Positions 39,400 through 56,007 of a DNA stretch of 64,000 bases are shown piece by piece (within the stretch, counting starts at the first letter, position 1; the number at the start of each line of letters is the position of its first letter). The position numbers and the translations under genes were made by a program. The DNA is from a virus. The DNA lies in IMG/VR virus record IMGVR_UViG_3300008266_000014, positions 32,001-96,000 of that record; one strand, given 5' to 3'. The notes beneath the pieces are model-generated. The model was not told where the DNA came from, searched no databases, and was given only the letters and a program-made list of their open reading frames with translations.

Positions 39400-39917
39400 T
39401 GATATATGATCTTGTACCTCCTGACCATCCTCTATTGAGGACCAAACTTGAGAGGTTTAATTTTACTGATCCCCCCATCAATCCTCATGAGTTGGCTAAC
39501 AATCTTATTGAAACGATGGTGCACTATCAAGGGATCGGTCTCTCAGCTAATCAGTGTGGTCTTCCTTATCGAGTTTTTGTTTTGTGGTCTAACCCAACAA
39601 AAGTCATGTTCAATCCTACCGTGGCAGATGTATCAACCGAAGATATTTTGCTTGAAGAAGGATGCTTGACTTATCCCAATCTTTTTATTAAAATCAAGAG
39701 ACCTAAATTAGTCAGAGTCCGTTACATGGATTCTTTTGGTGAAGCACATACAGACAAATTTACTGGGATGTCCGCTCGTTGCGTTCTTCATGAGGTGGAT
39801 CATCTGAACGGTGTTAACTTCACTCTCAAAGCCAATAAGTTTCATTATGATCAAGCGATGAGGCAGAGGAGCAAGAGAATGAAATCATATAAGGTGCCTA
39901 CATATGAGCAAAATTAA
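39399..39917 (+). CDS. def: Peptide deformylase
   Basis: GIGLSANQCG, EGCLT, HEVDHLNG motifs. Confidence 0.92.
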   Translation: MIYDLVPPDHPLLRTKLERFNFTDPPINPHELANNLIETMVHYQGIGLSANQCGLPYRVFVLWSNPTKVMFNPTVADVSTEDILLEEGCLTYPNLFIKIKRPKLVRVRYMDSFGEAHTDKFTGMSARCVLHEVDHLNGVNFTLKANKFHYDQAMRQRSKRMKSYKVPTYEQN

Positions 39918-40755
39918 AGTAGCAGAATTATTTTATAGTCTTCAGGGTGAAGGAAAATACGTTGGGGTACCTAGTGTGTTTCTTCGCACTTTCGGTTGTA
40001 ACTTCACGTGTAGTGGATTTGGAATGCCATCAGGTCAACTTTCTACGGAACGCGAAGCAATTGTAAAGAACATTGACCAGTATAAATCGTATAATGATCT
40101 GCCTCTTGTTCATACAGGCTGTGATTCATATGCAAGTTGGGATCCAAGATTCAAGCACCTGTCTCCGCTGTTTACTACAGACGAGATTGTTGATAAGATT
40201 ATGACACTTCTTCCAGAACAGAAGTGGAACAATGAACATTTAATTATTACTGGTGGTGAGCCTTTGCTTGGGTGGCAACGGTCTTATGAGGATTTGTTGA
40301 ATCATGAAAAGATGGAAGGTCTTTCATCACTTACTTTTGAAACAAACGGAACACAGAAGCTAACAGAAGATTTTAAAAAGTATCTATACAAATATTCTAG
40401 GTTACACAAAGGAAGCACAGAGATTGTTTTCTCTGTCAGTGCTAAGTTAAGTCCGTCAGGTGAGAAGTGGGAGGAGGCAATTCTTCCGGATGTTGTAAAA
40501 GAATATGATTGGTATGGTGAAGTGTATTTGAAGTTCGTTGTCGATAAAGAGACAGATATATACGAAATCGATAGAGCAGTTGCTGCTTATCGTGATGTCG
40601 GTATTCGTGGTGATGTTTATTTAATGCCAGTTGGTGGTACTGACCAACTTTACTTTAACAACTACCGAGCAGTTGCAGAGATGGCAATGAAGCGTGGCTG
40701 GAGATACAGTCCAAGACTACAGGTAGATATATGGAGAAACGCATGGGGAACATGA
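39904..40755 (+). CDS. queE: 7-carboxy-7-deazaguanine synthase (radical SAM)
   Basis: ELFYSLQGEG, FLRTFGCNFTC...GCDS, ITGGEP, FETNGT, SPRLQ. Confidence 0.9.
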   Translation: MSKIKVAELFYSLQGEGKYVGVPSVFLRTFGCNFTCSGFGMPSGQLSTEREAIVKNIDQYKSYNDLPLVHTGCDSYASWDPRFKHLSPLFTTDEIVDKIMTLLPEQKWNNEHLIITGGEPLLGWQRSYEDLLNHEKMEGLSSLTFETNGTQKLTEDFKKYLYKYSRLHKGSTEIVFSVSAKLSPSGEKWEEAILPDVVKEYDWYGEVYLKFVVDKETDIYEIDRAVAAYRDVGIRGDVYLMPVGGTDQLYFNNYRAVAEMAMKRGWRYSPRLQVDIWRNAWGT

Positions 40756-40758
40756 TTT

Positions 40759-41199
40759 ATGGACATTACAACGGATGATTTCTTCAAAGCAGTGGCTTGT
40801 CTTCATCAGCAAATCAGAAACTCTGAGGATACGTTTGACAGCGTTGTTGGGATCTCTCGTGGGGGCCTTATTAGTGGCGTTATTCTCTCTCACCGTCTTG
40901 AGATTCCTTTTCGACCTATTGAATGGTCATTAAGAGATTCTCATAGAAAATATATTCCACCCGATATCATTGTTGATGCGTGGGAAGGTAAGAAGATACT
41001 TCTTGTTGATGATATTGTTGATAGTGGGGAAACAATAGTAACAATTAAGAATCGTTTTGGAGATTCTTCTAAAAATGTTAAAGTGGCCTGCCTTGTCTAC
41101 AACAAAGAACAACAGTTAGTTATACCAGATTTTTGGTATGAATCTATTGACAGGAATGAGGATAAGGATTGGGTCAATTTCTGGTGGGAATCTAAATAA
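40759..41199 (+). CDS. Type I phosphoribosyltransferase (purine/XGPRT-like)
   Basis: GISRGG, ILLVDDIVDSGET PRPP-binding motif, WVNFWWE C-terminus. Confidence 0.85.
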   Translation: MDITTDDFFKAVACLHQQIRNSEDTFDSVVGISRGGLISGVILSHRLEIPFRPIEWSLRDSHRKYIPPDIIVDAWEGKKILLVDDIVDSGETIVTIKNRFGDSSKNVKVACLVYNKEQQLVIPDFWYESIDRNEDKDWVNFWWESK

Positions 41200-41205
41200 A
41201 TTCTC

Positions 41206-41275
41206 ATAGCGGCCTTTCTGGACTTCATCCCGCTTTATAAATTCTGCAGGCCTATATCTCATATAGGAGAATTTA
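41206..41275 (+). promoter_or_regulatory. Candidate riboswitch-like leader of queD (preQ1-I-like)
   Basis: AGCGG/CCGCT stem with loop ending CATC, A/T-rich tail, GGCCT/AGGCC pairing, and CCTATAT/ATATAGG hairpin over the AGGAGA SD. Confidence 0.5.
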
Positions 41276-41788
41276 ATGTCTCAAACTATGTTTCCATCAA
41301 AAACATACAAATATGTTTCAACAAAAGAATACCATGATGCATTTCCTTGCGCTTATAGGCAATGGCGTGCAGATTCGCATTGTAATCTGATTCATGGTTA
41401 TTCCTTTTCAATGAAGTTTTATTTTGGTACAGATGATCTTGATGTTCGTAACTGGGCGGCTGATTATGGTGGTCTGAAAGAGCTCAAGGGTGTTCTCGAG
41501 AGTCAGTTTGATCATACCTTGCTTGTTGCGGAGGATGATCCTGAATTGGATTTGTACATGGAGATGCAGCGTAGAAACATTGCCAAGCTAACCATTCTTC
41601 CAAAGTTGGGGTGTGAAGGTCTAGCAGACCAACTTTACAAATACGTAAATGGTGTATATATTCCTGACTACTGGGGTCCTGGTGAAGCCGATCGCCTTTG
41701 GTGCTATCGTGTAGAAGTTCGTGAGACACAAAGCAACATGGCTTTCCGTGAAGGTCATCGTGAATGGAATGAGGACTTGTTTGCGTGA
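41276..41788 (+). CDS. queD: 6-carboxy-tetrahydropterin synthase (QueD/PTPS family)
   Basis: SHCNLIHGY (CxxxHG), DYGGLK, FDHTLL, VEVRET motifs; in a cluster with queE. Confidence 0.85.
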   Translation: MSQTMFPSKTYKYVSTKEYHDAFPCAYRQWRADSHCNLIHGYSFSMKFYFGTDDLDVRNWAADYGGLKELKGVLESQFDHTLLVAEDDPELDLYMEMQRRNIAKLTILPKLGCEGLADQLYKYVNGVYIPDYWGPGEADRLWCYRVEVRETQSNMAFREGHREWNEDLFA

Positions 41789-42081: not shown

Positions 42082-42669
42082 ATGAAAAGGGAAAACTGGT
42101 TCGCTACTCCCGTTTGGTATGATGATACTGATGTGCCAGATGCAGTAGTCGAGCAAATAGCTAGCAAGTGGATATCTTTGTCACGAGATGTGCAATCAGC
42201 AAGTGTATCTAATGTTGGTGGATGGCAAAGCCATAGTCTGACATATGATGAATGTGATTCTTTTGAGAGAGAGTTATTTCATCATGTAGACCTCGCTGCT
42301 GACTTTATACACGAAGACTATAAGATAAAGAATAAAATAGTTCTCGGCAATTGGTGGGTTAACATTAACGGGTATGGTAACTACAACAGGCTCCACATAC
42401 ACGGAGGAGTTTTGTCTGGAGTTTTTTATGTGAAAACTGCTAAAGCTGACTCAGGATCCTTAATTTTCCACAGACCTTCTTACATGTACGAGGTTGCATC
42501 CTTTACTACCACCGATTTAGATTCTACAGCTTTGGAAGTTAGTTATGAGCCTTTGGATAAGAGATTGATATTGTTTCCTGCGTGGATACCCCATAGCGTA
42601 AATGCTAATTTTTCTGACCAAAAGCGAGTATCTATTGGGTTCAACTACGTCGTGGCACAGGGGTTATAG
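42082..42669 (+). CDS. 2OG-Fe(II) oxygenase (TIGR02466-like)
   Basis: SNVGGWQS, WVNIN..HIH..LSGVFY, LFPAWIPHSV..N....RVSIGFN. Confidence 0.8.
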   Translation: MKRENWFATPVWYDDTDVPDAVVEQIASKWISLSRDVQSASVSNVGGWQSHSLTYDECDSFERELFHHVDLAADFIHEDYKIKNKIVLGNWWVNINGYGNYNRLHIHGGVLSGVFYVKTAKADSGSLIFHRPSYMYEVASFTTTDLDSTALEVSYEPLDKRLILFPAWIPHSVNANFSDQKRVSIGFNYVVAQGL

Positions 42670-43139: not shown

Positions 43140-43216
43140 GGGCCGGAAGCTTAATTGGTATAAGCGTCCGACTCATAATCGGAGGACAGTGAGTTCGAGT
43201 CTCACCCGGCCCACCA
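43140..43216 (+). tRNA. tRNA with CAT anticodon (likely Ile2; elongator Met possible)
   Basis: GGGCCGG/CCGGCCC acceptor, TCCGA-CTCATAA-TCGGA arm, TTCGA, encoded CCA; lacks initiator GGG/CCC anticodon stem. Confidence 0.9.
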
Positions 43217-43231
43217 CCTGATGGAGATAAT

Positions 43232-43675
43232 ATGGAAAAGAAGTGGACATTGCCAGTACTAGAAAATCAAAACGGTGAGCTCTATATTGAACTCAATGAT
43301 GAGATTCTCGAAGGGTCTGGTTTGAATATTGGTGATACGTTGAACTGGAAAGACAACAAAGATGGATCTTACAGTCTCACAAAAGCTGAGGGTGATCTCT
43401 TCGTTGTAGATTCCATTAGCGTGTTTCACATCAGGCATGTTGTGAGAGCAAAGAATGCAGAGCACGCGATGGACGAGGTCGTGTGTGATAACGGTAATCT
43501 AAGAGAGTTTAGCCAGAAGCATGTCGATTGTAATATTATTGATGCACGAAAGATCACTGCAGAGGAGTATCTGAATATGTTTGATAAGGATAACTCATAC
43601 CTATCCAGCTGGTCTGAAGATAAAAAGTTGGAGTTCATTAATACCATTGACTACGAGAAGCACTACAAATCATGA
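43232..43675 (+). CDS. Hypothetical protein (AbrB-like N-terminus)
   Basis: GELYIELNDEIL..GL.IGDTLNW..NKDGSYSL; GGAG SD. Confidence 0.6.
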   Translation: MEKKWTLPVLENQNGELYIELNDEILEGSGLNIGDTLNWKDNKDGSYSLTKAEGDLFVVDSISVFHIRHVVRAKNAEHAMDEVVCDNGNLREFSQKHVDCNIIDARKITAEEYLNMFDKDNSYLSSWSEDKKLEFINTIDYEKHYKS

Positions 43676-43830
43676 AAGTTATTGAGAAGTGGTACGAGAG
43701 GCTGCTAGGATATGACTGGCACTATCGACTAAGATCACGGTTTACTTTTCTTGAATGGCTGTTCCTAGCAGCAGCTATTGTGTTCATTGTTTGGTGGCTC
43801 TATGACTGGTTAATTTTAGGAATACTATGA
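43672..43830 (+). CDS. Small membrane protein (52 aa, not in ORF track)
   Basis: MKVIEKWYERLLGYDWHYRLRSRFTFLEWLFLAAAIVFIVWWLYDWLILGIL; ATGA overlaps at both ends. Confidence 0.65.
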   Translation: MKVIEKWYERLLGYDWHYRLRSRFTFLEWLFLAAAIVFIVWWLYDWLILGIL

Positions 43831-44177
43831 TGGATACTAATTTACGGCGTGGTTTTTTAAAGAATCTTGGATTCCTTGGTGCATTTGCTTCCGGTGCTGC
43901 ATCAGCAAAGATCGTTATTGAAGAAAAGCTACCAGAAGTTAAGCCAGAACCAAAAGAAGATATATCTCATCTGGCACCAGAGTTTGGTGATCAGTTCGTA
44001 TTACAAGGTAATCGAAAGTACAAAGACTATTCAAATTTAACTGTAGATGGTATTTCTACCTATGGTATTCAAAGTTGGGAGTATGCAAATAGAGTGCAGC
44101 TTGGTGTAGGCAAAGATAATCGTCTTTGGCTACAGATTGGTGATAGCTGGCACAGGGTAGCACTGGAGTCCAGATGA
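43827..44177 (+). CDS. Protein with twin-arginine (Tat)-like signal
   Basis: NLRRGFLKNLGFLGAFASGAASA. Confidence 0.6.
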   Translation: MMDTNLRRGFLKNLGFLGAFASGAASAKIVIEEKLPEVKPEPKEDISHLAPEFGDQFVLQGNRKYKDYSNLTVDGISTYGIQSWEYANRVQLGVGKDNRLWLQIGDSWHRVALESR

Positions 44178-44833
44178 AAGTAAACATAGGATGCTACAAG
44201 AACTGGATTGGTCCGTACCAAATAGCTGAGAAGTTGATGTTCTGGGCTGATAAGTACGAAGACGATCGAGTACATAGACTTGGTGATCTTCTGGATAAAA
44301 TTCCAGGACTCACCAAGTTTTGTTTGTGGGTTGATAAACACAGACAGCGCAATGTTGAGGTACGCATTGACAAGTGGGACACGTGGTCAATGGATCACAC
44401 ACTCGCTCTTATCATTTTACCAATGCTGAAACAGTTACAAGAAACAAAACATGGATCACAGTTTGTTGATGATGAGGATGTACCTGAAGAACTAAAATCC
44501 ACATCTGCTCCCCCTAAGGAAAATGAGTGGGATACTGATGACAACATTCACAAAAGATGGGACTGGGTTCTTAAAGAAATGATATTTGCTTTTGAATGTA
44601 AGCTGAATGATAACTGGGATGATGAGTTTTGGACCGGAGAATGGGGGGAATCCACGTTCGTTGAGACAGGTGAAGAGCACTTTAATTCGTTGACCAACAA
44701 ATCTGAAAAGTTGTATACTATGCATAACACAGGTAATCGTACTTGTGACTGGGAAGCGCGTCAAAAGGTTCAAAACCGTATTACTAATGGTTTCAGACTT
44801 TTTGGCAAATATTATGAAGGACTTTGGGATTAA
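44174..44833 (+). CDS. Conserved phage hypothetical protein
   Basis: 219 aa; IDKWDTWSMDHTLA, RWDWVLKEMIFAF, GFRLFGKYYEGLWD. Confidence 0.7.
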   Translation: MKVNIGCYKNWIGPYQIAEKLMFWADKYEDDRVHRLGDLLDKIPGLTKFCLWVDKHRQRNVEVRIDKWDTWSMDHTLALIILPMLKQLQETKHGSQFVDDEDVPEELKSTSAPPKENEWDTDDNIHKRWDWVLKEMIFAFECKLNDNWDDEFWTGEWGESTFVETGEEHFNSLTNKSEKLYTMHNTGNRTCDWEARQKVQNRITNGFRLFGKYYEGLWD

Positions 44834-44841
44834 TCTATATC

Positions 44842-45357
44842 ATGAAAACTTTATACGTTGTACTGCTAGCAGCTGCAATTACAGGTTGTTCGAGTCAGAA
44901 GATGGTAAAGATTCCGGATTCAAAAGGAACTGTGCCAGAGTGGTTTGCTGCTGAGCCAGAAAAGCAAGGTAGTGATATCATTGTCACTGCAACAGATACT
45001 TCTCGTGATATGCAGTTTGCGATTGACAAAGCAATGCTACAGGGCCGTGTAGAGCTTGCTAATCGTATTGGTGTTCGTGTTGATTCTCTTGTTCGTGAAA
45101 GCGTCAAAGAAGATTCCGGTGCCAAGATGAAAGATGTTGATCGCGAAGTTGATCGTGTATCCAAGCAGGTAACAAATCAGATGTTATCAATGTATACGCG
45201 TGAGAAGCTAACAGTGATGAAAGAAGATGGTGGGTTCCGTGCTTTCGTCATGTTGAAAATTTCTGAAGATCAGAGTAGGAAACTTTTTGAGTTGAATCGC
45301 CGCAATCCAAAGAATCGTGACGAACAGTTCAGAGAGCTGGAAGTACTTACTCGATGA
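44842..45357 (+). CDS. Lipoprotein (LPP20-like)
   Basis: MKTLYVVLLAAAITGC lipobox; VPEWF; FAIDKAMLQGRVELA. Confidence 0.7.
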   Translation: MKTLYVVLLAAAITGCSSQKMVKIPDSKGTVPEWFAAEPEKQGSDIIVTATDTSRDMQFAIDKAMLQGRVELANRIGVRVDSLVRESVKEDSGAKMKDVDREVDRVSKQVTNQMLSMYTREKLTVMKEDGGFRAFVMLKISEDQSRKLFELNRRNPKNRDEQFRELEVLTR

Positions 45358-45383
45358 TCAACGAAAGATATATAGTAAATTAG

Positions 45384-45408
45384 AACCCGAGTTATACTCG
45401 GGTTTTTT
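45384..45408 (+). terminator. Rho-independent terminator
   Basis: AACCCGAGT-tat-ACTCGGGTT followed by T run. Confidence 0.8.
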
Positions 45409-45422
45409 ATTGTTAAATTAAA

Positions 45423-45965
45423 ATGCCAAATTCTTTTTTTATTAGCGACACTCATTTTGGTCACACAGGTGTATGTAAGTTTCTCAGAGATGATGGAACA
45501 AAACTTCGTCCGTGGGATGATCCAGATGAGATGGATCAGGCTATGATCGAGAATTGGAACAAGACTGTCCGACCGAATGATAAGGTGTACCATCTTGGTG
45601 ATGTGGTGATCAATCGAAAATCATTGAAGACACTTGCTCTTCTCAATGGTGATAAGGTTCTGATCAAAGGTAATCATGATATATTTAAACTTAATGAGTA
45701 TACAGAGTTCTTTCGCGATATAAGAGGGTATCATGTTTTAAATGGCATGATCCTTAGTCATATTCCGATCCACGAAGAAAGCATTGCAAGATTTGGTGTT
45801 AACATTCACGGACATTTGCACTACAACCGTGTAAAGAAGAATGGTGAGATTGATCCTCGCTATTTCAACGTGAGTGTAGAGCAGATTAACTATACCCCCA
45901 TTTCAATTGACGAACTGAGACAGAGAGTGATTGAACAGGGTGGACAAGTGAATTTCAGGAGCTAA
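45423..45965 (+). CDS. Calcineurin-like metallophosphoesterase
   Basis: SDTHFGH, YHLGD, KGNHD, HGHLH. Confidence 0.88.
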   Translation: MPNSFFISDTHFGHTGVCKFLRDDGTKLRPWDDPDEMDQAMIENWNKTVRPNDKVYHLGDVVINRKSLKTLALLNGDKVLIKGNHDIFKLNEYTEFFRDIRGYHVLNGMILSHIPIHEESIARFGVNIHGHLHYNRVKKNGEIDPRYFNVSVEQINYTPISIDELRQRVIEQGGQVNFRS

Positions 45966-45967
45966 TT

Positions 45968-46159
45968 ATGTCAGGCAAAGGAAGCAAACCAAGACCTTAT
46001 AGTGTTGACCAAGAAACTTTTGACAAAAATTGGGATGAGATATTCACTAAAGAAAAGAAAATGACACGTGAAGAAGCCCTGCAAGAAATGGTTAGAATCA
46101 GTGAAGAAATGGGATTATATATAGATGATCCTATCGATAATCCGTTAATCAAGAAATAA
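45968..46159 (+). CDS. Hypothetical protein
   Basis: 63 aa; GKGSKPRP..V...F..NWD.IF. Confidence 0.6.
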   Translation: MSGKGSKPRPYSVDQETFDKNWDEIFTKEKKMTREEALQEMVRISEEMGLYIDDPIDNPLIKK

Positions 46160-46160
46160 T

Positions 46161-46234
46161 CCCGGTGTAGTGTAGTGGCAACACGTTGATCTCCAAAATC
46201 AAAATTCGCGGTTCGATTCCGTGCACCAGGGCCA
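46161..46234 (+). tRNA. tRNA-Trp(CCA)
   Basis: TTGAT-CTCCAAA-ATCAA arm, GGTTCGATTCC, CCA end; one C-A mismatch in acceptor stem. Confidence 0.85.
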
Positions 46235-46263
46235 TTGACATACATATAAATATAATGTATAAT
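46235..46263 (+). promoter_or_regulatory. Perfect sigma70 promoter with embedded late promoter
   Basis: TTGACA-17 nt-TATAAT; TATAAATA at 46245-46252 within the spacer. Confidence 0.85.
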
Positions 46264-46285
46264 CTTTTTGCCGGAGGAAAAATAA

Positions 46286-46942
46286 ATGCAGAAGTTCTCT
46301 AGTTACCTTCTGAACGAGGAAGAGAGAGTTAATGACACTCGTAAGACCCAGGTTGCAACAACTGGTGGTACCTATGAGAAAACAGGTAAGTTCCTCCATC
46401 CACTTCTACAACCAAAATCCAAGATCATTAGCATTGGAGCAGGGTTGGAACACACCAAGGTAGCTTTACAAAGAGGTCTTGGTGGTGAGAAGAGTACTCA
46501 TACAATCCACGATATGGAACCTAATCCCGAAGGGAGAAAGGTAAAACCAGAGTACACCAAAGCCGAGGATATCCCTCATAATCATTATCATGCAGCAGTG
46601 TCACATAATGTATTGAATGTTGTTGAACCTCATGTACGTGAGCACGTTATGCATTCCATCTTCAATTCAATGAAGGAAGGTGGTCATGCAGTGATTGGCA
46701 CACGTAAATGGAAGGGTGATATTGATAAGACAAAAAATGCAGAACCTGGAGACGAACCCAAGTCATTGTGGGTTAAGAAGAAGGGTGGGGCATCTTATCA
46801 AAAAGGTTTTGATGGTAACGAACTAAAAGAATATGTTCATGATTACGCTTCGCGTCACGGGCATGAAGTTAAGGTTACGAACTTGAAAGGCATCGCAGCA
46901 ACTGGCGTCCATGTTCATTTGCTGAAGAAAGCAAAACCGTAA
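46286..46942 (+). CDS. Class I SAM-dependent methyltransferase-like protein, possibly capsid-targeted
   Basis: IISIGAG, HDMEP, SHNVLNVV, MKEGGHAVIGTR, YQKGF; N-terminus MQKFSSYLLNEEE. Confidence 0.7.
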   Translation: MQKFSSYLLNEEERVNDTRKTQVATTGGTYEKTGKFLHPLLQPKSKIISIGAGLEHTKVALQRGLGGEKSTHTIHDMEPNPEGRKVKPEYTKAEDIPHNHYHAAVSHNVLNVVEPHVREHVMHSIFNSMKEGGHAVIGTRKWKGDIDKTKNAEPGDEPKSLWVKKKGGASYQKGFDGNELKEYVHDYASRHGHEVKVTNLKGIAATGVHVHLLKKAKP

Positions 46943-47029
46943 TAAAGGTGGACATCAAATGGGGCAATGTTTGTAATTATTTTTGTTTTACTTCTACTAT
47001 TTTATATACATAATAGCTTTTGAAGCGCT

Positions 47030-47584
47030 ATGAATATTTTTTTATATGATGATCTCATCGATAGTAATACGGTAGATGAGACAGAGCAGCTTCTATGCGG
47101 TATCTACTTTCCATGGTATTTTCAAAACTCTACCGTGCTACCTCCTGAAGTTTTTGGTATTAGTGGAGGTCCTCTATACGATTTTCAATTCATTCACACA
47201 TTTATTAGGAATGGAGAATTAAACTCTGGTAGTGTGAATCTTCCAATGAAAATTTTTGATATTGTTGCTGAAAGATTGAAACTCAACATACGGCACGTCA
47301 CCAGAATAAAGGCTAATCTTCTCACCACGGGGTTCCCTTCAAGTCAAGATTTAGATCAACAATATCACACCGATCACACGGAAGAAAGCACATATAGTAT
47401 GATTTATTATGTTAATGATTCGGACGGTGATACTGTATTTAAAGACATCAACAACAACGAACAGAGAAGAATAAGTCCGAAAAAAGGAAGAATTGCTTTG
47501 TTTAGATCTAATATTATGCACAGAGCAACCAACCCTACTCACCATAAGCGCAGAGTTGTCATTAATTACATTTTTCAAGTATAA
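47030..47584 (+). CDS. 2OG-Fe(II) oxygenase
   Basis: RIKANL, YHTD, YYVNDSDGDT, HRATNP...RRVVINY. Confidence 0.8.
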   Translation: MNIFLYDDLIDSNTVDETEQLLCGIYFPWYFQNSTVLPPEVFGISGGPLYDFQFIHTFIRNGELNSGSVNLPMKIFDIVAERLKLNIRHVTRIKANLLTTGFPSSQDLDQQYHTDHTEESTYSMIYYVNDSDGDTVFKDINNNEQRRISPKKGRIALFRSNIMHRATNPTHHKRRVVINYIFQV

Positions 47585-47764: not shown

Positions 47765-47765
47765 T

Positions 47766-48836: not shown

Positions 48837-48911
48837 CCCACTTAGCACAATTGGTAGTGCAACTGATTTGTAATCAGTAGGTTGGGAGTTCGAGTCTCTC
48901 AGTGGGCACCA
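48836..48911 (+). tRNA. tRNA-Thr(TGT)
   Basis: GCCCACT/AGTGGGC, ACTGA-TTTGTAA-TCAGT, CCA. Confidence 0.95.
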
Positions 48912-48912
48912 T

Positions 48913-48989
48913 CTCGGTATAGCACAGCCTGGTAGTGCGCCTGGTTTGGGACCAGGAGGTCGGGAGTTCGATCCTCTCTACCGAGACCA
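48913..48989 (+). tRNA. tRNA-Pro(TGG)
   Basis: CTCGGTA/TACCGAG, CCTGG-TTTGGGA-CCAGG, CCA. Confidence 0.95.
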
Positions 48990-48996
48990 GTAATAG

Positions 48997-49079
48997 GCGT
49001 CTGTGGCGTAATTGGTAGCCGCGCTGGATTTAGGTTCCAGTCTTTCGGGGTGGGGGTTCGAGTCCCTCCAGACGCACCA
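48997..49079 (+). tRNA. tRNA-Leu(TAG)
   Basis: GCGTCTG/CAGACGC, CTGGA-TTTAGGT-TCCAG, variable arm, CCA. Confidence 0.93.
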
Positions 49080-49080
49080 A

Positions 49081-49165
49081 GCCCAAGTGGTGAAACGGTA
49101 GACACAGGAGACTTAAAATCTCCCACCCATTGGGTGTGCCGGTTCGATTCCGGCCTTGGGTACCA
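49081..49165 (+). tRNA. tRNA-Leu(TAA)
   Basis: GCCCAAG/CTTGGGT, GGAGA-CTTAAAA-TCTCC, variable arm, CCA. Confidence 0.93.
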
Positions 49166-49186
49166 CGTATAAACTAACGTATAGAC

Positions 49187-49843
49187 ATGCTAGAAGACAT
49201 AGCAACAGAGTTGAAGAATAAACAAATATTCTACAGACCAAATATCTTAAGCAATATATTTTCTTGGCAAGAATTAGAGAAACTAATAAATCTTAGACCG
49301 TTCATTAATTCTCAAAGAGTTCATATTATATCTGATCAAGAAGATGATTGGAAATGGCCGTATCAAAATTGGTTGACAGATGTTAATACATACCCTCCAA
49401 CACTTTTTGAGAATTTGATTCGCAAGTACACTGTTTTTCTTTCTGACTGTTCTAGAGTAAATGAGAAAATTAATTCCATATGTGGTGAAATAGAAAATAT
49501 CACTGGATGTTCCTCCGATGCTCATTTATACTTTAATTTAGTAGGAAATAATTCGGAAAGTTTTGGGATACATTGTGATATATCAAATGTCCTTGTTTTG
49601 CAGGTAGAAGGGACTACTAGGTTTAAAATATGGTCAAAGTTCAACAAAAACAGAATGGTTGATAACTTGGGTCACATAGACCAACCACCTGTTGTGGATG
49701 TGGAAATGAAACCAGGGGACGTTGTATACATTCCAAAATATTACTATCACCAGGGCATATCCACAACAAAACGGCTGTCAATAAGTTTTCCTCACTTCGA
49801 AAGTGAGGATCTGCATCAAGATAGAAAATGGATAGAATTATAA
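49187..49843 (+). CDS. JmjC/cupin-4 family oxygenase
   Basis: FGIHCD, VLQVEG, MKPGDVVYIPKYYYH, RLSISF. Confidence 0.8.
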   Translation: MLEDIATELKNKQIFYRPNILSNIFSWQELEKLINLRPFINSQRVHIISDQEDDWKWPYQNWLTDVNTYPPTLFENLIRKYTVFLSDCSRVNEKINSICGEIENITGCSSDAHLYFNLVGNNSESFGIHCDISNVLVLQVEGTTRFKIWSKFNKNRMVDNLGHIDQPPVVDVEMKPGDVVYIPKYYYHQGISTTKRLSISFPHFESEDLHQDRKWIEL

Positions 49844-49854
49844 GGTGATATGAT

Positions 49855-50055
49855 ATGAGTATAGAGTTAAAAAGAGAGCAGATTGAGAAGCTGATTGACA
49901 TTTACAACCACTTCCACGAAATTCAATCATTCACAATTGCTCTGGAAGAAGATTCTGATATGATAACAGTGAGCTTTAATATTAATGATGTTAAACCAGA
50001 GCACACTACAGAAGATCGATTTGATAAACCATTTAAGAAACAGGTATTCAAATGA
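49855..50055 (+). CDS. Hypothetical protein
   Basis: 66 aa ORF with AAGG SD, in operon. Confidence 0.5.
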   Translation: MSIELKREQIEKLIDIYNHFHEIQSFTIALEEDSDMITVSFNINDVKPEHTTEDRFDKPFKKQVFK

Positions 50056-50264
50056 AAATAGACATCAGTGATGAAACAGTATACAATCTCGTGGTTGATG
50101 TACTGATGAATGATTACAAGTATCTGTGTAGTGACATTGAACGATACCAAGATAAGACAATTCTTTCTGATATTGAACAAGAAGATTTAAGTAACTGGAT
50201 CAGTCACCGAGATGCTCTGGAAATAACAATTAACTACTATGCAGGATATAACAGCTGGAAATAA
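50052..50264 (+). CDS. Hypothetical protein
   Basis: 70 aa acidic ORF, ATGA overlap. Confidence 0.5.
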   Translation: MKIDISDETVYNLVVDVLMNDYKYLCSDIERYQDKTILSDIEQEDLSNWISHRDALEITINYYAGYNSWK

Positions 50265-50265
50265 T

Positions 50266-50715
50266 ATGAGTGATTATAGAGACACATACTACCTTGATGT
50301 TGGATTTACATGCTCCTGCTTTGACTTGTTTCATGCTGGTCATGTGTTGATGTTACAAGAAGCACGCTCACAGTGTGACTATCTGATAGTGGGATTGCAG
50401 ACCGATCCAACAATTAATCGACCAGAGAAGAACAAACCAGTCCAGTCAATCTTCGAACGATACGTTCAACTTAAAGCATGTAAGTATGTCGATGAGATTG
50501 TGATATATGAAACAGAAAATGATCTGTTGAATATTTTGAGATCTTATCGTATAGATAAAAGGTTTGTTGGTGAAGAATATCAAGACAGAATGTTTACTGG
50601 ATCTGATATCTCAACCATTGAGATAATTTATAACTCGAGAAGACACAACTTCTCAACAACAGAATTACGAAAGCGTGTTGCTGACTGCAACGCAATTGAT
50701 AGTTTAGTTAAGTAG
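50266..50715 (+). CDS. Cytidylyltransferase (TagD/glycerol-3-phosphate CT-like)
   Basis: FDLFHAGH (HxGH), LIVGLQTD, ERY..L..CKYVDE, FSTTELR. Confidence 0.85.
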   Translation: MSDYRDTYYLDVGFTCSCFDLFHAGHVLMLQEARSQCDYLIVGLQTDPTINRPEKNKPVQSIFERYVQLKACKYVDEIVIYETENDLLNILRSYRIDKRFVGEEYQDRMFTGSDISTIEIIYNSRRHNFSTTELRKRVADCNAIDSLVK

Positions 50716-50741
50716 TATCCTATCTGACCGTAGACGAGAAT

Positions 50742-50816
50742 CTGGCTATAGTTAAATGGATATAACAAGGGTCTTCTAAACCTTAATTCCTGGTTCGATT
50801 CCAGGTAGCCGGACCA
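50742..50816 (+). tRNA. tRNA-Arg(TCT)
   Basis: CTGGCTA/TAGCCGG, AGGGT-CTTCTAA-ACCTT, GGTTCGATTCC, CCA. Confidence 0.9.
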
Positions 50817-50843
50817 AAAAATCAGGCCATATTTTTATTTCAT

Positions 50844-51212
50844 ATGATTTTAGTAAAAACGTATATTGATAAAAGCGACATTCATGGTGTAGGGGTGTTT
50901 GCTGCTGAGTTCATATCTAAGGGAACCAAAATTTGGGAAATTAATAGACAGCTAGATTTAGAGTGGGCAATCGAAGAGTTTATTGAGTTACCTCGTGAGG
51001 CTCAGCTCTATATTCAGCACTGGGGATATAGAGATCCTGAAACATTAATGTATAGACTAAGTTTTGATAATGATAGATTTATGAATTGGAGTAGTGATCC
51101 TAACGTAATTGGTAATTCTAAAGAAACATTTGCAGCAAGAGATATAGACAAATATCAAGAGCTGACTTATCCTTTCAGTGAAGATCTGTTTTCTCAGTTT
51201 ACTTCAAGTTAA
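50844..51212 (+). CDS. SET-domain protein
   Basis: SDIHGVGVFA.EFI.KG, RFMNWSSDPN (NHS is NWS), FAARDI...ELTY. Confidence 0.8.
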   Translation: MILVKTYIDKSDIHGVGVFAAEFISKGTKIWEINRQLDLEWAIEEFIELPREAQLYIQHWGYRDPETLMYRLSFDNDRFMNWSSDPNVIGNSKETFAARDIDKYQELTYPFSEDLFSQFTSS

Positions 51213-51213
51213 T

Positions 51214-51288
51214 GCGGGTGTAACTCAGTGGTAGAGTGTCAGCCTTCCAAGCTGTTCGTCGCAGGTTCGATCCCTGTCACCCGCTCCA
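51214..51288 (+). tRNA. tRNA-Gly(TCC)
   Basis: GCGGGTG/CACCCGC, CAGC-CTTCCAA-GCTG, TCCA end. Confidence 0.95.
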
Positions 51289-51301
51289 TTATTACAACAA
51301 A

Positions 51302-51868
51302 ATGCAAAATCTAATTTTAACTTTAGATAGTAGTGGAATACCAAACAACTGGACAACGTGGCAAGAAGCAGTACTATTAAAATGTAAGGGATTGATTGCA
51401 TGGGAGTTTGGTGATAGAGAGTTCATGTTCAGAGGTGGTATATCAAGAATAACCGGAGAGCAGTCGGTAATTGAAGTGTCCTCTATTATTGCATTGAAGA
51501 CTAAATTCAAATACAAGGGACGCACCCCCACATTCTCTAACAGAAATCTTTTTAGACGCGATTTACATACGTGTGCATATTGTGGTAAGAGCTCTGGGGA
51601 TCATGAACTAACGAAGGATCATATCATTCCGATATCTAAAAAAGGTCCTACGTCTTGGATGAATTGTGTTACTTCCTGTAAGAAGTGTAATGGTAAGAAA
51701 GGGAACAGAACCCCAGAAGAGTCTGGTATGCATCTTCTTTATGTGCCATATATACCAGATAAGGCAGAATCGTTGATCCTGCAAAACAGAAACATTCTTG
51801 CAGACCAAATGCAGTTTTTGTTGAATTTCATTCCCAAACACAGTAGAGTGTGGAACACTGTTGATTAA
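51302..51868 (+). CDS. HNH endonuclease (McrA-like)
   Basis: NLFRRDLHTCAYCG, TKDHIIPISKKG, CVTSCKKCNGKKG; ATG just after tRNA-Gly. Confidence 0.85.
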   Translation: MQNLILTLDSSGIPNNWTTWQEAVLLKCKGLIAWEFGDREFMFRGGISRITGEQSVIEVSSIIALKTKFKYKGRTPTFSNRNLFRRDLHTCAYCGKSSGDHELTKDHIIPISKKGPTSWMNCVTSCKKCNGKKGNRTPEESGMHLLYVPYIPDKAESLILQNRNILADQMQFLLNFIPKHSRVWNTVD

Positions 51869-51901: not shown

Positions 51902-52222
51902 ATGCTTCAGCAGACAAATAAGTTAATGAAAAGTAGCATCATATCAAAGCAGTTTAATTATGTTGAATTTGACCCTAACAACAAAAAACATAGAATAGCT
52001 TTCTTTCAGTTTAAAGTCTCTGGTAAGTGGCCAGATAATATGAGATTTAATCTTGATCCGTTGTATGGAAATGTTCCGTCAATGATTAATCAGAAACTTC
52101 TTGATTTTTATTTTGCAAGAGATAGAGCTATCCCTAAAGATCTCAAAGAGAAATATAGTGAGAAGAAACTAGTATACCCTATAAGTGACATGACTGAAAT
52201 GACAGGAGAAGAAATTGAGTGA
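51902..52222 (+). CDS. Hypothetical protein
   Basis: 106 aa; FDPNNKKHR, GAGG SD. Confidence 0.55.
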   Translation: MLQQTNKLMKSSIISKQFNYVEFDPNNKKHRIAFFQFKVSGKWPDNMRFNLDPLYGNVPSMINQKLLDFYFARDRAIPKDLKEKYSEKKLVYPISDMTEMTGEEIE

Positions 52223-52913
52223 CAATGATCCCAAAGTTGATGTTTCGAATCTAATTAAGCAGCGATTGAAAGCTGCGAATGCACAATACAAAGCATGTGA
52301 CAATATCTCTTCATACATTAACGAAGAAGAGATACCCCTTCTCATAGATGAGGTCAAGTATAAGTTTCAGCAGGTACTTGACTCTCTCATTATCGATACA
52401 GAAAACGATCCTAACTCCAAAGACACAGCAAAGCGTCTTGCAAAGATGTATGTGTATGAGTTGATGTCTGGTCGTTATGAACCAAAACCAGATGTCACTT
52501 CATTTCCTAACGAAGGTGAAAACAGATTCGAAGGAATGCTGGTTGTTCGAGCAGAGATTCGTTCTATGTGCTCGCATCACCACCAGCCAGTGAAGGGTGT
52601 TTGTTATATTGGTATTGTTCCTACTGGTCGAGTAATTGGATTGTCGAAGTATGTTCGTATTGCACAATGGTGTGCACGTCGTGGACAATTACAAGAAGAA
52701 TTAGTTAATCAAATTGCAGGGGAAATTATGAAAGCAACAGAGACAGAAAATGTTGCTGTGTATATTGAGGCCACACATGGATGTATGGATAACAGAGGAG
52801 TAATGGCACACTCATCAATGACTCAGACATCTGCTGTGCATGGATTGTTCCACAACAATAGTGTCAAGCAAGAATTCTTTGACAACATTAAATTACAGTC
52901 GATGAGATGTTGA
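52215..52913 (+). CDS. folE: GTP cyclohydrolase I
   Basis: DTAKRLAKMY, SMCSHH, GLSKYVR, QLQEEL, HGCMDNRGV. Confidence 0.93.
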   Translation: MSDNDPKVDVSNLIKQRLKAANAQYKACDNISSYINEEEIPLLIDEVKYKFQQVLDSLIIDTENDPNSKDTAKRLAKMYVYELMSGRYEPKPDVTSFPNEGENRFEGMLVVRAEIRSMCSHHHQPVKGVCYIGIVPTGRVIGLSKYVRIAQWCARRGQLQEELVNQIAGEIMKATETENVAVYIEATHGCMDNRGVMAHSSMTQTSAVHGLFHNNSVKQEFFDNIKLQSMRC

Positions 52914-53456: not shown

Positions 53457-53933
53457 ATGCAAAGACTGACAACCAAATGGACTGACACTCTCGAGGAAGC
53501 TTTTGGTCCTCAAGTAAAGAGAGCAAGAGATGCTGAAATCATGGTAATGGATGCATTTACTAAATGGGGGTATGAAGTAATAGATCATGAGTCAGATAGG
53601 GATTTACAGACTCAAGGGCTTGATTTTTCTATACGAAAGAATACGTGGAGAAACTTTTACTCAATCGATGTGAAGGCCAACCTCGACAGCTACGGTTCTT
53701 ATTACGTTGATCTAAAACCAGATGGGTGGTTGTTTAACCCTAAAAAGACAAGTGATAGAATCTGTCATGCCTGCGTTGAGACAGGGTGGTTCCTCTGGTA
53801 CGGTAGAGACGACATGAAGAACTATATTCATAAAATGAATTTTGATATTTCCGAAGAAACAGTATTCAAGATAACTCCAAAAATTAAACTTGATTTTGTG
53901 ACACGCCGGAATGCTAACAAGGAGAGAGAATGA
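53457..53933 (+). CDS. Putative PD-(D/E)XK nuclease
   Basis: AEIMV...QTQGLDF...SIDVKAN...GWL pattern. Confidence 0.5.
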   Translation: MQRLTTKWTDTLEEAFGPQVKRARDAEIMVMDAFTKWGYEVIDHESDRDLQTQGLDFSIRKNTWRNFYSIDVKANLDSYGSYYVDLKPDGWLFNPKKTSDRICHACVETGWFLWYGRDDMKNYIHKMNFDISEETVFKITPKIKLDFVTRRNANKERE

Positions 53934-54313
53934 TAAAAACGTCAATATGGGTCACATTCCAAAAAGAAGGAATACACAAATATCCCCAAGCAGCAACAGA
54001 CCCCAAGCTAGTCCACGTAGCATTCCTTGCAAATCCCCATCGTCACATCTTCCACTTCAGAGTCGAATTAGAAGTTTTTCATGATGACCGTGACATAGAA
54101 TTTATTTTACTGAAGCGTGAGTTGGAGGAGCTATATAATACAGGAACTCTCATGCTGAATAATATGTCATGTGAAATGATAGCAAGAGAGTTGCTGGCGT
54201 ACATATCAGAATACTACCCTGGTCGCGACTGCACCATCAGTGTTAGTGAAGATAATGAAAATGGATGCACACTTCATTATGTGAAGGAAAGTCCTAAATC
54301 TGATTGGAAATAA
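53930..54313 (+). CDS. dpdL: QueD-paralogue T-fold protein, DpdL-like (CDG decarboxylase candidate)
   Basis: EGIHKYP, LANPHRHIF (LxxxHRHxF in place of QueD CxxxHGH), DRDIEF, SCEMIA, VSEDNENG. The DpdL motif is recalled from literature, not verified here. Confidence 0.7.
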   Translation: MIKTSIWVTFQKEGIHKYPQAATDPKLVHVAFLANPHRHIFHFRVELEVFHDDRDIEFILLKRELEELYNTGTLMLNNMSCEMIARELLAYISEYYPGRDCTISVSEDNENGCTLHYVKESPKSDWK

Positions 54314-54316
54314 ATT

Positions 54317-55171
54317 ATGGCTACATTCTGTCACATCGCTCCCATCCCACACCTAGATATCATCAAAGGATCAAAGGCTCATCTTGCGCTTGCACATCTT
54401 ATCGAGCAAAGCGAAGAGTACACTTCCTTTTATGCCAAGGAAAGACAAAATGGCAGTATGGTAATTCTAGATAATTCTGCTTTTGAAATGTACAAGCAAG
54501 GGAAGCCAATGTATGAAATACCCAAGCTGATTGAGATGGCAGATCGACTGAAAGCAGATTATGTTGTAATGTCGGATTATCCAAACGACTACAGCAAAAC
54601 AACAATCAGTGCTGCAAAAGAAATTGCACCTGTTTTGAAGGACAAAGGATACGGTACTTTCTTTTGTCCACAGTCTAAGATTGGAGACAAGGGTGATTTG
54701 TTTAATTGTTTTGAATGGGCCGCTGATTCTGATCTCGTTGACTATATCGGTGTATCAATTCTTGCAATTCCAAATGCTTATGGTGTGGAAAAAAAGAACA
54801 AACTCCAGCGTTTTGTTAGCCGGTATATGTTTATGCAGGAGTTGAGAGATAGTGGTGTACTTGATCATGCAAAGTCCAAAGGTAAAAAGATCCACATGCT
54901 CGGTATGTTAGATGGTCCTGGTGAGATTAGATTGATGGAATCATTTAAAGACTATATCGATACGTGGGACAGTAGTGCTGCGATGTGGTTAGGTCTTCAT
55001 GCCGGTAAAACATTCGACAGTTCCCCAACAGGACTGATAAACGGTAAGTATGAGGAAGAAGTAGACTTTGATTATCAAAATGATAAAGGTAAGTTGAATG
55101 CAATTATCAACATGAGTATAATCAACAACTATATTCAAATGTACCTAACACCGGAGAGCGATGATGAGTAA
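54317..55171 (+). CDS. dpdA: TGT-fold deazaguanine transglycosylase-like protein (DpdA family)
   Basis: ILDNSAFE, KIHMLGM, DTWDSS motifs resemble TGT/DpdA; adjacent to dpdL-like gene with folE/queD/queE nearby. Confidence 0.6.
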   Translation: MATFCHIAPIPHLDIIKGSKAHLALAHLIEQSEEYTSFYAKERQNGSMVILDNSAFEMYKQGKPMYEIPKLIEMADRLKADYVVMSDYPNDYSKTTISAAKEIAPVLKDKGYGTFFCPQSKIGDKGDLFNCFEWAADSDLVDYIGVSILAIPNAYGVEKKNKLQRFVSRYMFMQELRDSGVLDHAKSKGKKIHMLGMLDGPGEIRLMESFKDYIDTWDSSAAMWLGLHAGKTFDSSPTGLINGKYEEEVDFDYQNDKGKLNAIINMSIINNYIQMYLTPESDDE

Positions 55172-55541
55172 TTACAGATACAATGAAGATGTGTATCTTG
55201 GTAACATAATGAAATACCTTAAAGGAACATATGGAGAACATTATGTTGCTAAAGATATCCAGGTAATTGATATATGGGAGTCTCTAGACTCTCTTGAGTC
55301 TACAGCAAGAGACACAGCTATTAAATATCTATGTCGGTATGGAAAAAAGGATGGCAAGAATCGAAAAGATTTAATGAAGGCGATTCATTACATCATTCTT
55401 ATGATGTACGCAAGTGATAGGCAGGATCAACAAGAAAAGATCGATGCTTCCAAATACGAGGCTGTAAAAAACAATCAGCCAGAAATTCAAGATGCTTATG
55501 ATAAGGTGAATAATTATGATACATATCTCAGGACATCATAG
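55161..55541 (+). CDS. DUF3310 / T7 gp1.7-like protein
   Basis: TYGEHY, AIKYLCRYGKKDG...DLMKAIHY. Confidence 0.65.
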   Translation: MMSNYRYNEDVYLGNIMKYLKGTYGEHYVAKDIQVIDIWESLDSLESTARDTAIKYLCRYGKKDGKNRKDLMKAIHYIILMMYASDRQDQQEKIDASKYEAVKNNQPEIQDAYDKVNNYDTYLRTS

Positions 55542-56007
55542 TAAATCAACTCTTACAAATGTAAGAGAAAATGATAATCAACCCAATGCTGTTGACCTTC
55601 GGTTAGATAAAGTTTTCGTCATTGCTAAAAACAATTTTGTGATTAGTGAAGATGAAAAACAGCACAGAGGTACTATCGAGTGGATACCAGATGAGGATGG
55701 GTGGTTTACCCTTTCTGAAGGCACGTACGAAGTTGTAATGGAAAACATTATTCATGTTGGTCCAGATGAAGCAGGATGGGTAATTACAAGATCCACACTA
55801 AACCGTAATGGGGTTTTTATAACTTCTGGTCTGTATGATTCTGGATATCATGGTGTTATGGCAGGTGCTCTTCATGTAAGGGGAGGACCTTTAAAGATTA
55901 AAAGAGGAACACGAGTTGCTCAGTTCCTTCTTTTCAAAGCCGAGGCTCTCTCAGAATATAATGGATCTTATGGTTTGAAAAGTGAACACGATAAAAAATA
56001 CGTATAA
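55516..56007 (+). CDS. dUTPase/dCTP-deaminase-fold protein
   Basis: QPNAVDLRL, RSTLNRNG, YDSGYHG, RVAQF, YNGSY. Confidence 0.8.
   Translation: MIHISGHHSKSTLTNVRENDNQPNAVDLRLDKVFVIAKNNFVISEDEKQHRGTIEWIPDEDGWFTLSEGTYEVVMENIIHVGPDEAGWVITRSTLNRNGVFITSGLYDSGYHGVMAGALHVRGGPLKIKRGTRVAQFLLFKAEALSEYNGSYGLKSEHDKKYV

Follow-up and report, generated by a model that had tools for sequence, protein, structure and literature searches.

A probable phiST-type 7-deazaguanine DNA modification system in an uncultured T4-like phage and comparative hints of a pre-replicative base exchange

Introduction

Is guanine exchanged for 7-deazaguanine in finished phage DNA, or does the modified base enter with the nucleotides from which the DNA is made? 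The question is raised by a stretch of 64,000 nucleotides, here called the window, which comprises bases 32001-96000 of a linear 155.5-kb viral contig (IMG/VR record IMGVR_UViG_3300008266_000014; estimated completeness ~86%) from an uncultured T4-like phage. Judged by its genes, which include those of FolE, QueD, QueE, DpdL and the TGT-like enzyme DpdA3, the window very probably encodes a phiST-type system that replaces genomic guanine with 7-deazaguanine (dDG). Genes for a kinase-like protein and a nucleoside triphosphate (NTP) hydrolase lie beside that of DpdA3, and they may point to a swap that precedes replication and acts on free nucleotides, at odds with the published view. Entry of the base into DNA through the nucleotide pool, by some pre-replicative step, would seem to have an even chance of being correct.

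It is rare for a canonical base to be replaced completely. The hydroxymethylcytosine of phage T4 is made through the nucleotide pool. In phage S-2L, too, the Z base is formed at the nucleotide level (Czernecki et al., 2021; PMC8342488). The 7-deazaguanines are held to be the exception, being inserted post-replicatively by DpdA3, although the published test of DpdA3 in E. coli gave none (Cui, Hutinet et al., NAR 2023; PMC10516641). The pattern described here offers a concrete explanation for the failure of DpdL and DpdA3 by themselves in E. coli and makes the question testable with a defined gene set. A pre-replicative route had been put forward in an initial annotation of the window made from its letters; the comparison of gene neighbourhoods suggests it as well, so that the idea has gained comparative support.

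The predicted 7-deazaguanine pathway of the window

FolE, QueD and QueE convert GTP into 7-carboxy-7-deazaguanine (CDG), which is established chemistry of these families. The initial annotation had described a queE-PRTase-queD block (PRTase, phosphoribosyltransferase), a folE gene and an operon at 53.5-56.0 kb, and had assigned their products to CDG synthesis, a DpdL and a DpdA. All nine open reading frames (ORFs) are present on the + strand at the positions listed in Table 1, and the assignment to FolE, QueD, QueE, DpdL and DpdA holds by family, motif and profile matches. The absence of queC and queF, which had been noted for the window, extends to the whole 155.5-kb contig (~86% complete), on which no QueC, QueF, Pfam-detectable TGT or MazG was found.

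The type of system is already known. Cui, Hutinet et al. (NAR 2023; PMC10516641) named CGPG_00067 of phage phiST DpdL and CGPG_00065 DpdA3, and phiST, which has the same core set, carries 100% dDG. In the same work the pair of DpdL and DpdA3 is the signature of dDG DNA in phiST, phi19:2 and phi13:1, the decarboxylation of CDG by DpdL is a proposal, the Flavobacterium phage immuto_2-6A (hereafter immuto) is reported as 100% replaced, and DpdA3 systems are the sole 7-deazaguanine systems with 100% replacement (PMC10516641). The window holds a new, divergent member of the phiST type.

Among the base-synthesis proteins, the QueE-like enzyme has weak Pfam matches to Radical_SAM (24.6 bits, below the cut-off) and Fer4_12, and its homologues are found in the que blocks of relatives. 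The QueD-like protein has the motif CNLIHGY as against the CxxxHGH signature and found no match among PDB sequences. The CxxxHGY variant is also seen in phiST, immuto, ACP17, RHph_I1_18 and BUCT-ZZ01, whereas 9g and BSP7, both of which have QueC, keep CxxxHGH (alignment A4); the variant thus goes with phages of the DpdL or DpdA3 type. Since phiST and immuto carry it and both have measured DNA modification, the variant is evidently no bar to function. The DpdL homologue has LANPHRHIF at residues 33-41, fitting LxxxHRHxF in place of QueD's CxxxHGH. By tblastn it is 54% identical to the DpdL of ACP17 (3e-34) and 36% identical to phiST CGPG_00067 (2e-11), the DpdL family HMM (hidden Markov model) matches CGPG_00067 at 2e-22, and no Pfam family was matched; it co-occurs with FolE, QueD, QueE and a DpdA, without QueC.

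Phage que genes are sometimes called auxiliary metabolic genes. Those of the window could serve to boost the queuosine/tRNA metabolism of the host or to make a soluble deazapurine metabolite, rather than to modify DNA. This appears very improbable, as the contig has no QueC or QueF and hence no preQ0 or preQ1, the DpdL and DpdA3 pair is the signature described above, and the operon is embedded among replisome genes.

DpdL is seen in other arrangements elsewhere. In Chryseobacterium phage MA9V-3 (L082, 7461-8342) and Vibrio phage Bakedbeans (L083, 3058-4209) the match to DpdL is at the C-terminal end of longer annotated ORFs of 293 and 383 aa, respectively, whose N-terminal parts match no Pfam family; the Bakedbeans match runs beyond the annotated ORF end, and a frameshift or a miscalled boundary is possible. 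Two DpdL carriers, ACP17 (L081, 5692-7991) and Synechococcus phage BUCT-ZZ01 (L074, 10855-15012), have no detectable DpdA3. Their DpdL genes are flanked by GT-B (GT1/GT4-like) glycosyltransferase-like genes and large ORFs without a family, with no kinase or pyrophosphatase, an arrangement that may represent a different way of using 7-deazaguanine (DG).

DpdA3, the TGT-like enzyme

The product of the gene at 54317 had been called TGT-like in the initial annotation, a reading that can now be narrowed to the DpdA3 subfamily. Its structural model (pLDDT 92.3) is a TIM barrel. With this model, Foldseek placed archaeosine and bacterial TGTs on top (1iq8, 3.2e-8), and VIA aligned it with archaeosine TGT at Z 18.2 (root-mean-square deviation 3.3 A, 246 aligned residues), TGTs filling 50 of the top 50 rows. 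The DpdA3 family profile (39 sequences, alignment A1) matched phiST CGPG_00065 over its full length in hhalign (probability 98.1%, E 9.7e-14, 245 columns). Likewise, the family HMM recovered the phiST protein (2.2e-12), the immuto DpdA (2e-16) and BSP7_057 (2.5e-14). In pairwise comparison the window protein is ~26% identical to CGPG_00065 (tblastn, 7e-6) and 41-48% identical to proteins of RHph_I1_18, D479, Ahp1 and Bakedbeans, all of which are annotated only as hypothetical. The profile found no TGT among PDB sequences, and the fold is visible by structure alone.

Residues D52, D87, Q119, G196 and D218 are invariant across the 39 sequences, and D52 (in DNSAFE, compare DSGGFQ of TGT) and D218 (in WDSS) are conserved in phiST too. 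By alignment, the invariant residues appear to match the positions of the DSGGFQ, substrate-binding and nucleophile motifs of TGT, the hhalign comparison with E. coli Tgt covering only the first catalytic motif (E 0.16). No Cys is shared by all 39 sequences, so that a conserved Cys-based Zn site of the TGT kind is missing.

The family is large: its members form at least 1,520 clusters at 90% identity, and at 50% there are 1,646 representatives. It is annotated in no source. Many environmental phages therefore probably carry genomes in which G is replaced, which matters for restriction evasion and for sequencing.

Charge was also considered as a proxy for DNA binding and rejected. DpdA3 proteins are acidic (median isoelectric point 4.7-5.4), but the values for 9g DpdA (5.6) and E. 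coli Tgt (6.0) show that the measure does not discriminate.

Genes beside DpdA3

The neighbourhoods of DpdA3 were surveyed in 66 IMG/VR window-clade, 4 phiST-type and 80 immuto-type loci and in eight GenBank DpdA3 phages, with 17 classical 9g-type DpdA loci as control. A locus entered the counts if its sequence ran at least 3 kb beyond DpdA3 on each side; a neighbour is a gene within 3 kb. An IMG/VR scan with the DpdA3 of the Bacillus BSP7 type gave no confirmed locus.

A kinase-like gene was present in all 98 loci counted (28/28 window-clade, 5/5 phiST-type, 58/58 immuto-type and 7/7 other), and an NTP pyrophosphatase in 94 of them (28/28, 5/5, 57/58 and 4/7, respectively). The families that occupy these places differ. 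The kinase-like protein is DUF3310 in the window phage and RHph_I1_18, DNMK (T4 gp1-type) in D479 and Ahp1, where it fills the identical slot with DpdA3 on one side and the DCD-fold gene on the other, AAA_18 in phiST and MA9V-3, and AAA_28 in immuto, Campylobacter phage CC_R7 and Bakedbeans. The pyrophosphatase is of the DCD/dUTPase fold in the window and MazG in phiST, but of the DCD fold in the metagenomic relatives of phiST; in immuto it is PRA-PH (MazG/HisE superfamily), and one locus has a conventional dUTPase in its place. Swaps of unrelated families in one slot are the classical sign that it is the function itself that is kept. Phmmer searches of PDB with the PRA-PH-like enzyme of immuto and the MazG-like enzyme of phiST gave chance-level matches only, and no link to MazZ is drawn.

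In RHph_I1_18, DpdA3 and DUF3310 form one protein of 422 aa, and an exhaustive profile search found the same fusion in five further 50%-identity cluster representatives (P0126, P0128, P0131, P0143 and P0164). The fusions fall in at least two separate places on a quick tree, one pair lying in a clade with SH-aLRT support of 97 that excludes the others. All are within the 327-457 aa range, and no DpdA3 fusion of 498 aa or more was found.

The classical loci present a different picture. The kinase and pyrophosphatase seeds found nothing at any of the 17, and an unbiased Pfam scan of 65 ORFs near classical DpdA (six distinct loci) recovered no MazG, dUTPase, DCD, PRA-PH, DNMK, DUF3310 or PRTase. 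It did recover one AAA_28 protein, which may be NadR-related, since a nicotinamide mononucleotide transporter and a NADAR-domain protein are among the same pooled ORFs. In the annotated genomes of 9g, ART, Yong-L2-223, MS1 and 033B no kinase, NTP pyrophosphatase or PRTase adjoins DpdA; MS1 alone of the five has a dUTPase, four genes away from DpdA. Candidates for a pyrophosphatase, a base converter at the deoxynucleoside monophosphate (dNMP) level and a dNMP kinase thus appear to be adjacent and co-conserved across ~7 to 9 lineages and absent at classical DpdA loci. These comparisons lend good support to the suggestion of the initial annotation that kinase and NTP hydrolase act together with the pathway.

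According to the published model, the phage would replicate with ordinary dGTP, and DpdA3 would then exchange all G of the polymer for DG. The kinase, the dUTPase-fold enzyme and the PRTase would belong to the general nucleotide metabolism of the replication module and at most aid the supply of precursors, for example by salvage of guanine to GTP. This explanation remains a serious contender at less than even probability. The fold of DpdA3 is that of enzymes acting on polynucleotides. Its gene has replisome genes next to it in the window and the polymerase gene next to it in phiST, BSP7 and CC_R7, and the same holds for classical DpdA in 9g. A DUF3310 gene by gp45 belongs to the cyanophage backbone, the sole dUTPase-like gene of the contig could simply be the phage dUTPase, and the authors of the model hold insertion to be post-replicative (PMC10516641). 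It leaves unexplained why DpdA3 has an adjacent kinase and pyrophosphatase and classical DpdA has none, why unrelated families are exchanged in place, why DpdA3::DUF3310 fusions recur, and why one DCD-fold subfamily is restricted to DpdA3 phages. Moreover, the published heterologous tests of base exchange with DpdL and DpdA3 in E. coli yielded no dDG (PMC10516641). The same paper makes no mention of a kinase or a PRTase, and it dismissed CGPG_00066 for want of sequence homologues in other phages (PMC10516641). In the literature that was searched, no later paper dealt with DpdA3 or with a route at the nucleotide level.

The DUF3310 and DCD/dUTPase-fold proteins

The protein at 55161, a candidate deoxynucleotide kinase, had been described as similar to T7 gp1.7. 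The part of this claim that stands is the shared DUF3310 domain of ~60 residues, including a KY..R.GKK motif, which lies at residues 122-184 of gp1.7 (4.5e-23) and 25-78 of the window protein. The remainder differs, as the window protein has 126 aa against 196 and is without the N-terminal 120 residues of gp1.7. Its model is all-helical, and a fold search against PDB gave no match at E <= 0.001. DUF3310 was also considered as a mark specific to DpdA3 phages and rejected, since 469 phage records have homologues, the majority of them cyanophages that lack DpdA3.

The dUTPase fold proposed for the protein at 55516 is upheld by the PF22769 match (1.9e-15) and by the motif-III Asp. Its best PDB match is 9w59, a 'probable dUTPase' (1.2e-10), and SGLYDSGYHG aligns with motif III, the Asp being kept. 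A role as dCTP deaminase was rejected; in the alignment with 4xjc the 'TLE' position reads A/G, so that the deaminase Glu is missing and the protein is a hydrolase-type member of the family. It is the only gene of dUTPase-like fold on the contig, and homologues with more than 40% identity were found only in four DpdA3 isolates (RHph_I1_18, D479, Ahp1 and Bakedbeans). The enzyme is a candidate for depleting a canonical deoxynucleoside triphosphate (dNTP).

The purine PRTase

The PRTase encoded between queE and queD resembles enzymes of purine metabolism. Its best PDB relatives are Sulfolobus GpT-2 (4z1o, 1.9e-11), the Pyrococcus purine PRTase PH0095 (1vdm) and E. coli XGPRT, all of them purine PRTases. 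The acidic loop that binds phosphoribosyl pyrophosphate (PRPP), LLVDDIVDSGET, aligns with GpT-2 and PH0095, within the type I PRTase fold family. By tblastn, homologues are confined to 14 of 50,697 phage records, mostly complete-replacement phages: five of the phiST group, four of the immuto group, the cyanophage BUCT-ZZ01, two Brevundimonas phages with the gene order RNR-DNMK-FolE-PRTase (RNR, ribonucleotide reductase) and two faecal contigs.

The initial annotation had seen in this enzyme the point at which the deaza base becomes a nucleotide. On such a route DG or CDG and PRPP would give a ribonucleotide, a kinase the diphosphate, and RNR the deoxy form, dDGTP then being incorporated and DpdA3 left with a secondary task such as mopping up residual G. 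The linkage to que genes that this reading calls for is found in relatives. The PRTase lies beside QueE, QueD or FolE in 12/28 window-clade loci, in 55/58 immuto-type loci with sufficient flank, in one phiST-type locus and in BUCT-ZZ01, where the order is QueE-PRTase-x-QueD-FolE with a DpdL in addition; a 6-oxopurine-type PRTase is embedded in the que operons of three distant clades. In phiST its gene is flanked by that of a DNMK-like kinase and is two genes from RNR, Brevundimonas phage MaInes has the order RNR, DNMK, FolE, PRTase, and the contig of the window encodes an RNR as well. Such an entry is nonetheless improbable. DpdA3 is present in RHph_I1_18, D479, Ahp1, Bakedbeans and the Campylobacter and Bacillus phages, yet tblastn found no homologue of the PRTase in any of them, and the enzyme is therefore probably accessory and not the entry point. 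Of the 28 window-clade loci, only 12 have the PRTase within 3 kb of DpdA3, and in the window the distance is ~13 kb; the route would yield 7-deaza-GTP for RNA too. An enzyme that salvages the guanine freed by base exchange, returning it to GMP and GTP for use by FolE, may account for the position of the gene at least as well.

In MaInes (L076, 3633-8447), where the kinase is of the DNMK type and the PRTase of the purine type, no QueD, QueE, DpdL or DpdA3 was detected within 8 kb, and this phage may employ the same PRTase in another pathway derived from GTP.

A possible nucleotide-level route

A route through the nucleotide pool might proceed as follows. FolE, QueD and QueE would make CDG from GTP, and DpdL would strip its carboxyl group to give the free base DG. 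The DCD/dUTPase-fold enzyme would hydrolyse dGTP to dGMP, which removes the competitor and supplies the substrate at once. DpdA3, as a minimal TGT barrel without the invariant-Cys Zn site, would swap G for DG on the deoxynucleotide, the DUF3310 protein would rephosphorylate the product, and host kinases would complete dDGTP for incorporation by the phage polymerase. Finally, the purine PRTase would return the freed guanine to GMP and thence to GTP, feeding FolE. We infer every one of the substrate assignments from the hydrolysis of dGTP onwards. In its full form, the proposal holds that DpdA3 is not a DNA transglycosylase but a deoxynucleotide base-exchanger (dGMP + 7-deazaguanine -> dDGMP + guanine) in a metabolon with the kinase and the dGTP pyrophosphatase, the PRTase closing the cycle; this is tentative and, taken as a whole, rather unlikely. 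A nucleotide-level route fits the published failure of DpdL and DpdA3 alone to give dDG in E. coli, the restriction of 100% replacement to DpdA3 systems, and the presence of ADG nucleoside in the cytoplasm of CP220-infected cells, as relayed in the account of Cui, Hutinet et al. (PMC10516641).

Several points weigh against such a route. The Campylobacter and Bacillus DpdA3 loci have a kinase and no recognised pyrophosphatase nearby. Kinases and dUTPases are frequent in phage replication modules, all TGT and DpdA enzymes characterised to our knowledge act on polynucleotides, and we know of no trimeric dUTPase-fold enzyme that prefers a purine dNTP. Loci within a clade are not independent, so that the real sample is ~7 to 9 lineages, and the kinase and pyrophosphatase seeds were drawn from DpdA3 loci, a bias controlled by one Pfam scan and public annotations only. 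The BLASTP match of the DUF3310 protein to gp1.7 is not significant (E 0.055-0.076 over 33-61 residues). As DUF3310 is common in cyanophages that lack DpdA3 and adjoins gp45 there (in S-CAM7 it is directly upstream of it), its adjacency in the T4-like window clade may be partly inherited synteny, a caveat that the recurrent DpdA3::DUF3310 fusions offset for this family. Lastly, the statement by the authors who described the family covers all 7-deazaguanine insertions as post-replicative (PMC10516641).

If the proposal in its full form is true, all complete 7-deazaguanine replacements (dDG, dADG and fdPreQ1) would be pre-replicative, and that published statement would be overturned. A nucleotide-level route, if confirmed, would further provide a portable pathway for fully 7-deaza-G DNA in vivo and a new type of reaction for the TGT fold.

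Layout of the locus and accessory genes

The genes from 53457 to 56984 adjoin or overlap one another and lead into those of the gp45 clamp and the gp44 clamp loader. DpdL and DpdA3 are separated by 3 nt, DpdA3 and DUF3310 overlap by 11 nt, and DUF3310 and the DCD-fold gene by 26 nt. The 10 kb between queD and folE hold nine tRNA genes together with 2-oxoglutarate (2OG) oxygenases, an HNH endonuclease and a peptidase. QueE-PRTase-QueD directly adjoins FolE or DpdL in relatives that are more distant; the split of the pathway is a local feature of this genome, caused by the nine tRNA genes and unrelated cargo that lie between its halves. Megablast of both gene blocks against the 50,697 phage records gave no match. 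The phage has no close sequenced relative.

Table 1. Predicted genes of the 7-deazaguanine pathway and of its surroundings (positions in the window)
Position	Strand	Predicted product	Basis
39904..40755	+	QueE-like radical-SAM enzyme (CDG synthase)	phrog_2076 4.7e-57
40759..41199	+	Small 6-oxopurine-type phosphoribosyltransferase, 146 aa	PF00156 1.7e-14; phrog_8995; wedged between queE and queD
41276..41788	+	QueD-like 6-carboxytetrahydropterin (CPH4) synthase, CxxxHGY variant	PF01242 2e-13 (above cut-off); phrog_2389 9e-35
52215..52913	+	FolE, GTP cyclohydrolase I	PF01227 2.3e-41; phrog_2197 1.2e-48
53457..53933	+	Accessory ORF, possibly PD-(D/E)XK-like nuclease	D55...D71-x-K73 arrangement; Atlas leads
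53930..54313	+	DpdL homologue (QueD paralogue, proposed CDG decarboxylase)	LANPHRHIF; phrog_17812 8.7e-36
54317..55171	+	DpdA3-subfamily TGT-like base-exchange enzyme (predicted)	TGT fold; profile homology to phiST CGPG_00065
55161..55541	+	DUF3310 protein, candidate deoxynucleotide kinase	PF11753 6.6e-11; PHROG 'nucleotide kinase' families 1e-9 to 4e-5
55516..56007	+	DCD/dUTPase-fold NTP pyrophosphatase, candidate remover of canonical dNTP	PF22769 1.9e-15; PF00692 1.3e-6
56019..56984	+	Conserved ORF, possibly GT-A glycosyltransferase; module membership uncertain	phrog_1574 2.9e-60 (function-unknown family)

The cargo between the two halves is mixed. The tRNA genes are scattered over 43140-51285 (Rfam, 55-74 bits), and among them is a D-alanyl-D-alanine carboxypeptidase (48015-48836; Peptidase_S11, 2.3e-32), which T4-like phages do not usually carry as an auxiliary gene. 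At 42082-42669, 47030-47584 and 49187-49843 are two ORFs of the 2OG-Fe(II) oxygenase family and one JmjC/cupin ORF. Directly upstream of the folE block, an HNH endonuclease (51236-51868; PF14279, 6.4e-16) is probably a homing element, and Vibrio phage D479 has a homing endonuclease inside its module too. Scanned with Rfam at E <= 1, the region of 39-57 kb showed no riboswitch, of the preQ1 class or any other, the gap between the PRTase and queD (41192-41278) included.

Two further ORFs adjoin the module. The one at 53457 had been read as a PD-(D/E)XK-like nuclease, which is plausible from its arrangement of acidic residues and lysine (Table 1) and from its nearest named Atlas clusters, NOV_C (18% of members) and PDDEXK_14 (32%), both no more than leads; it has no Pfam or PHROG match. 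Its homologues occur in 7/28 window-clade and 9 immuto-type loci, and in these 9 (among L091-L170) they adjoin QueF, so that the accessory gene recurs in two distant DpdA3 clades. The ORF at 56019, between the DCD/dUTPase-fold gene and gp45, keeps its place beside the module in almost every window-clade locus as well as in RHph_I1_18. It has a weak match to Anp1 (0.018), and its nearest named Atlas cluster is 'nucleotide-diphospho-sugar transferase' (0.97).

Comparison with known systems

The closest known system is that of phiST, which has the same five core families (FolE, QueD, QueE, DpdL and DpdA3) without QueC, the LxxxHRHxF DpdL and the CxxxHGY QueD, a kinase-like gene and an NTP pyrophosphatase beside DpdL and DpdA3, and a purine PRTase in the genome. 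The two differ in their carriers, phiST being a 79-kb siphovirus and the window phage an uncultured T4-like myovirus. They differ also in the kinase (AAA_18 in phiST, DUF3310 in the window), in the pyrophosphatase (MazG and DCD/dUTPase fold, respectively), and in layout, as in the window the PRTase is inside the que operon and the pathway is split by ~10 kb.

Classical DpdA1/DpdA2 systems, such as that of Enterobacteria phage 9g with dG+ and those of the Queuovirinae, share a TGT-fold enzyme encoded next to FolE, QueD and QueE and near replisome genes. They modify only part of G, 0.1-30% (PMC10516641). Unlike the window, classical systems carry QueC and are without an adjacent kinase, NTP pyrophosphatase or PRTase, and classical DpdA has 317 aa as against 260-285 aa in DpdA3.

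In working logic, the predicted module is comparable with the hydroxymethylcytosine route of T4 and the Z-cluster of S-2L (DatZ, MazZ and PurZ), two routes to complete base replacement in which an NTP pyrophosphatase takes away the canonical dNTP and yields a dNMP, the base is converted on the dNMP, and a kinase returns the product to the pool. In T4 the dCTPase gp56, the dCMP hydroxymethylase gp42 and the dNMP kinase gp1 take these parts, and the kinase beside DpdA3 in D479 and Ahp1 is of the gp1 family (DNMK). In S-2L, MazZ is a (d)GTP-specific enzyme of the MazG/HisE fold that converts dGTP to dGMP for PurZ, and in E. coli the three genes of the cluster, datZ, mazZ and purZ, are enough by themselves (Czernecki et al., 2021; PMC8342488). 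The pyrophosphatases of phiST and immuto are of the MazG/HisE-type fold, as is MazZ. DpdA3, however, is not homologous to PurZ or gp42, and the resemblance is one of working logic and not of family membership.

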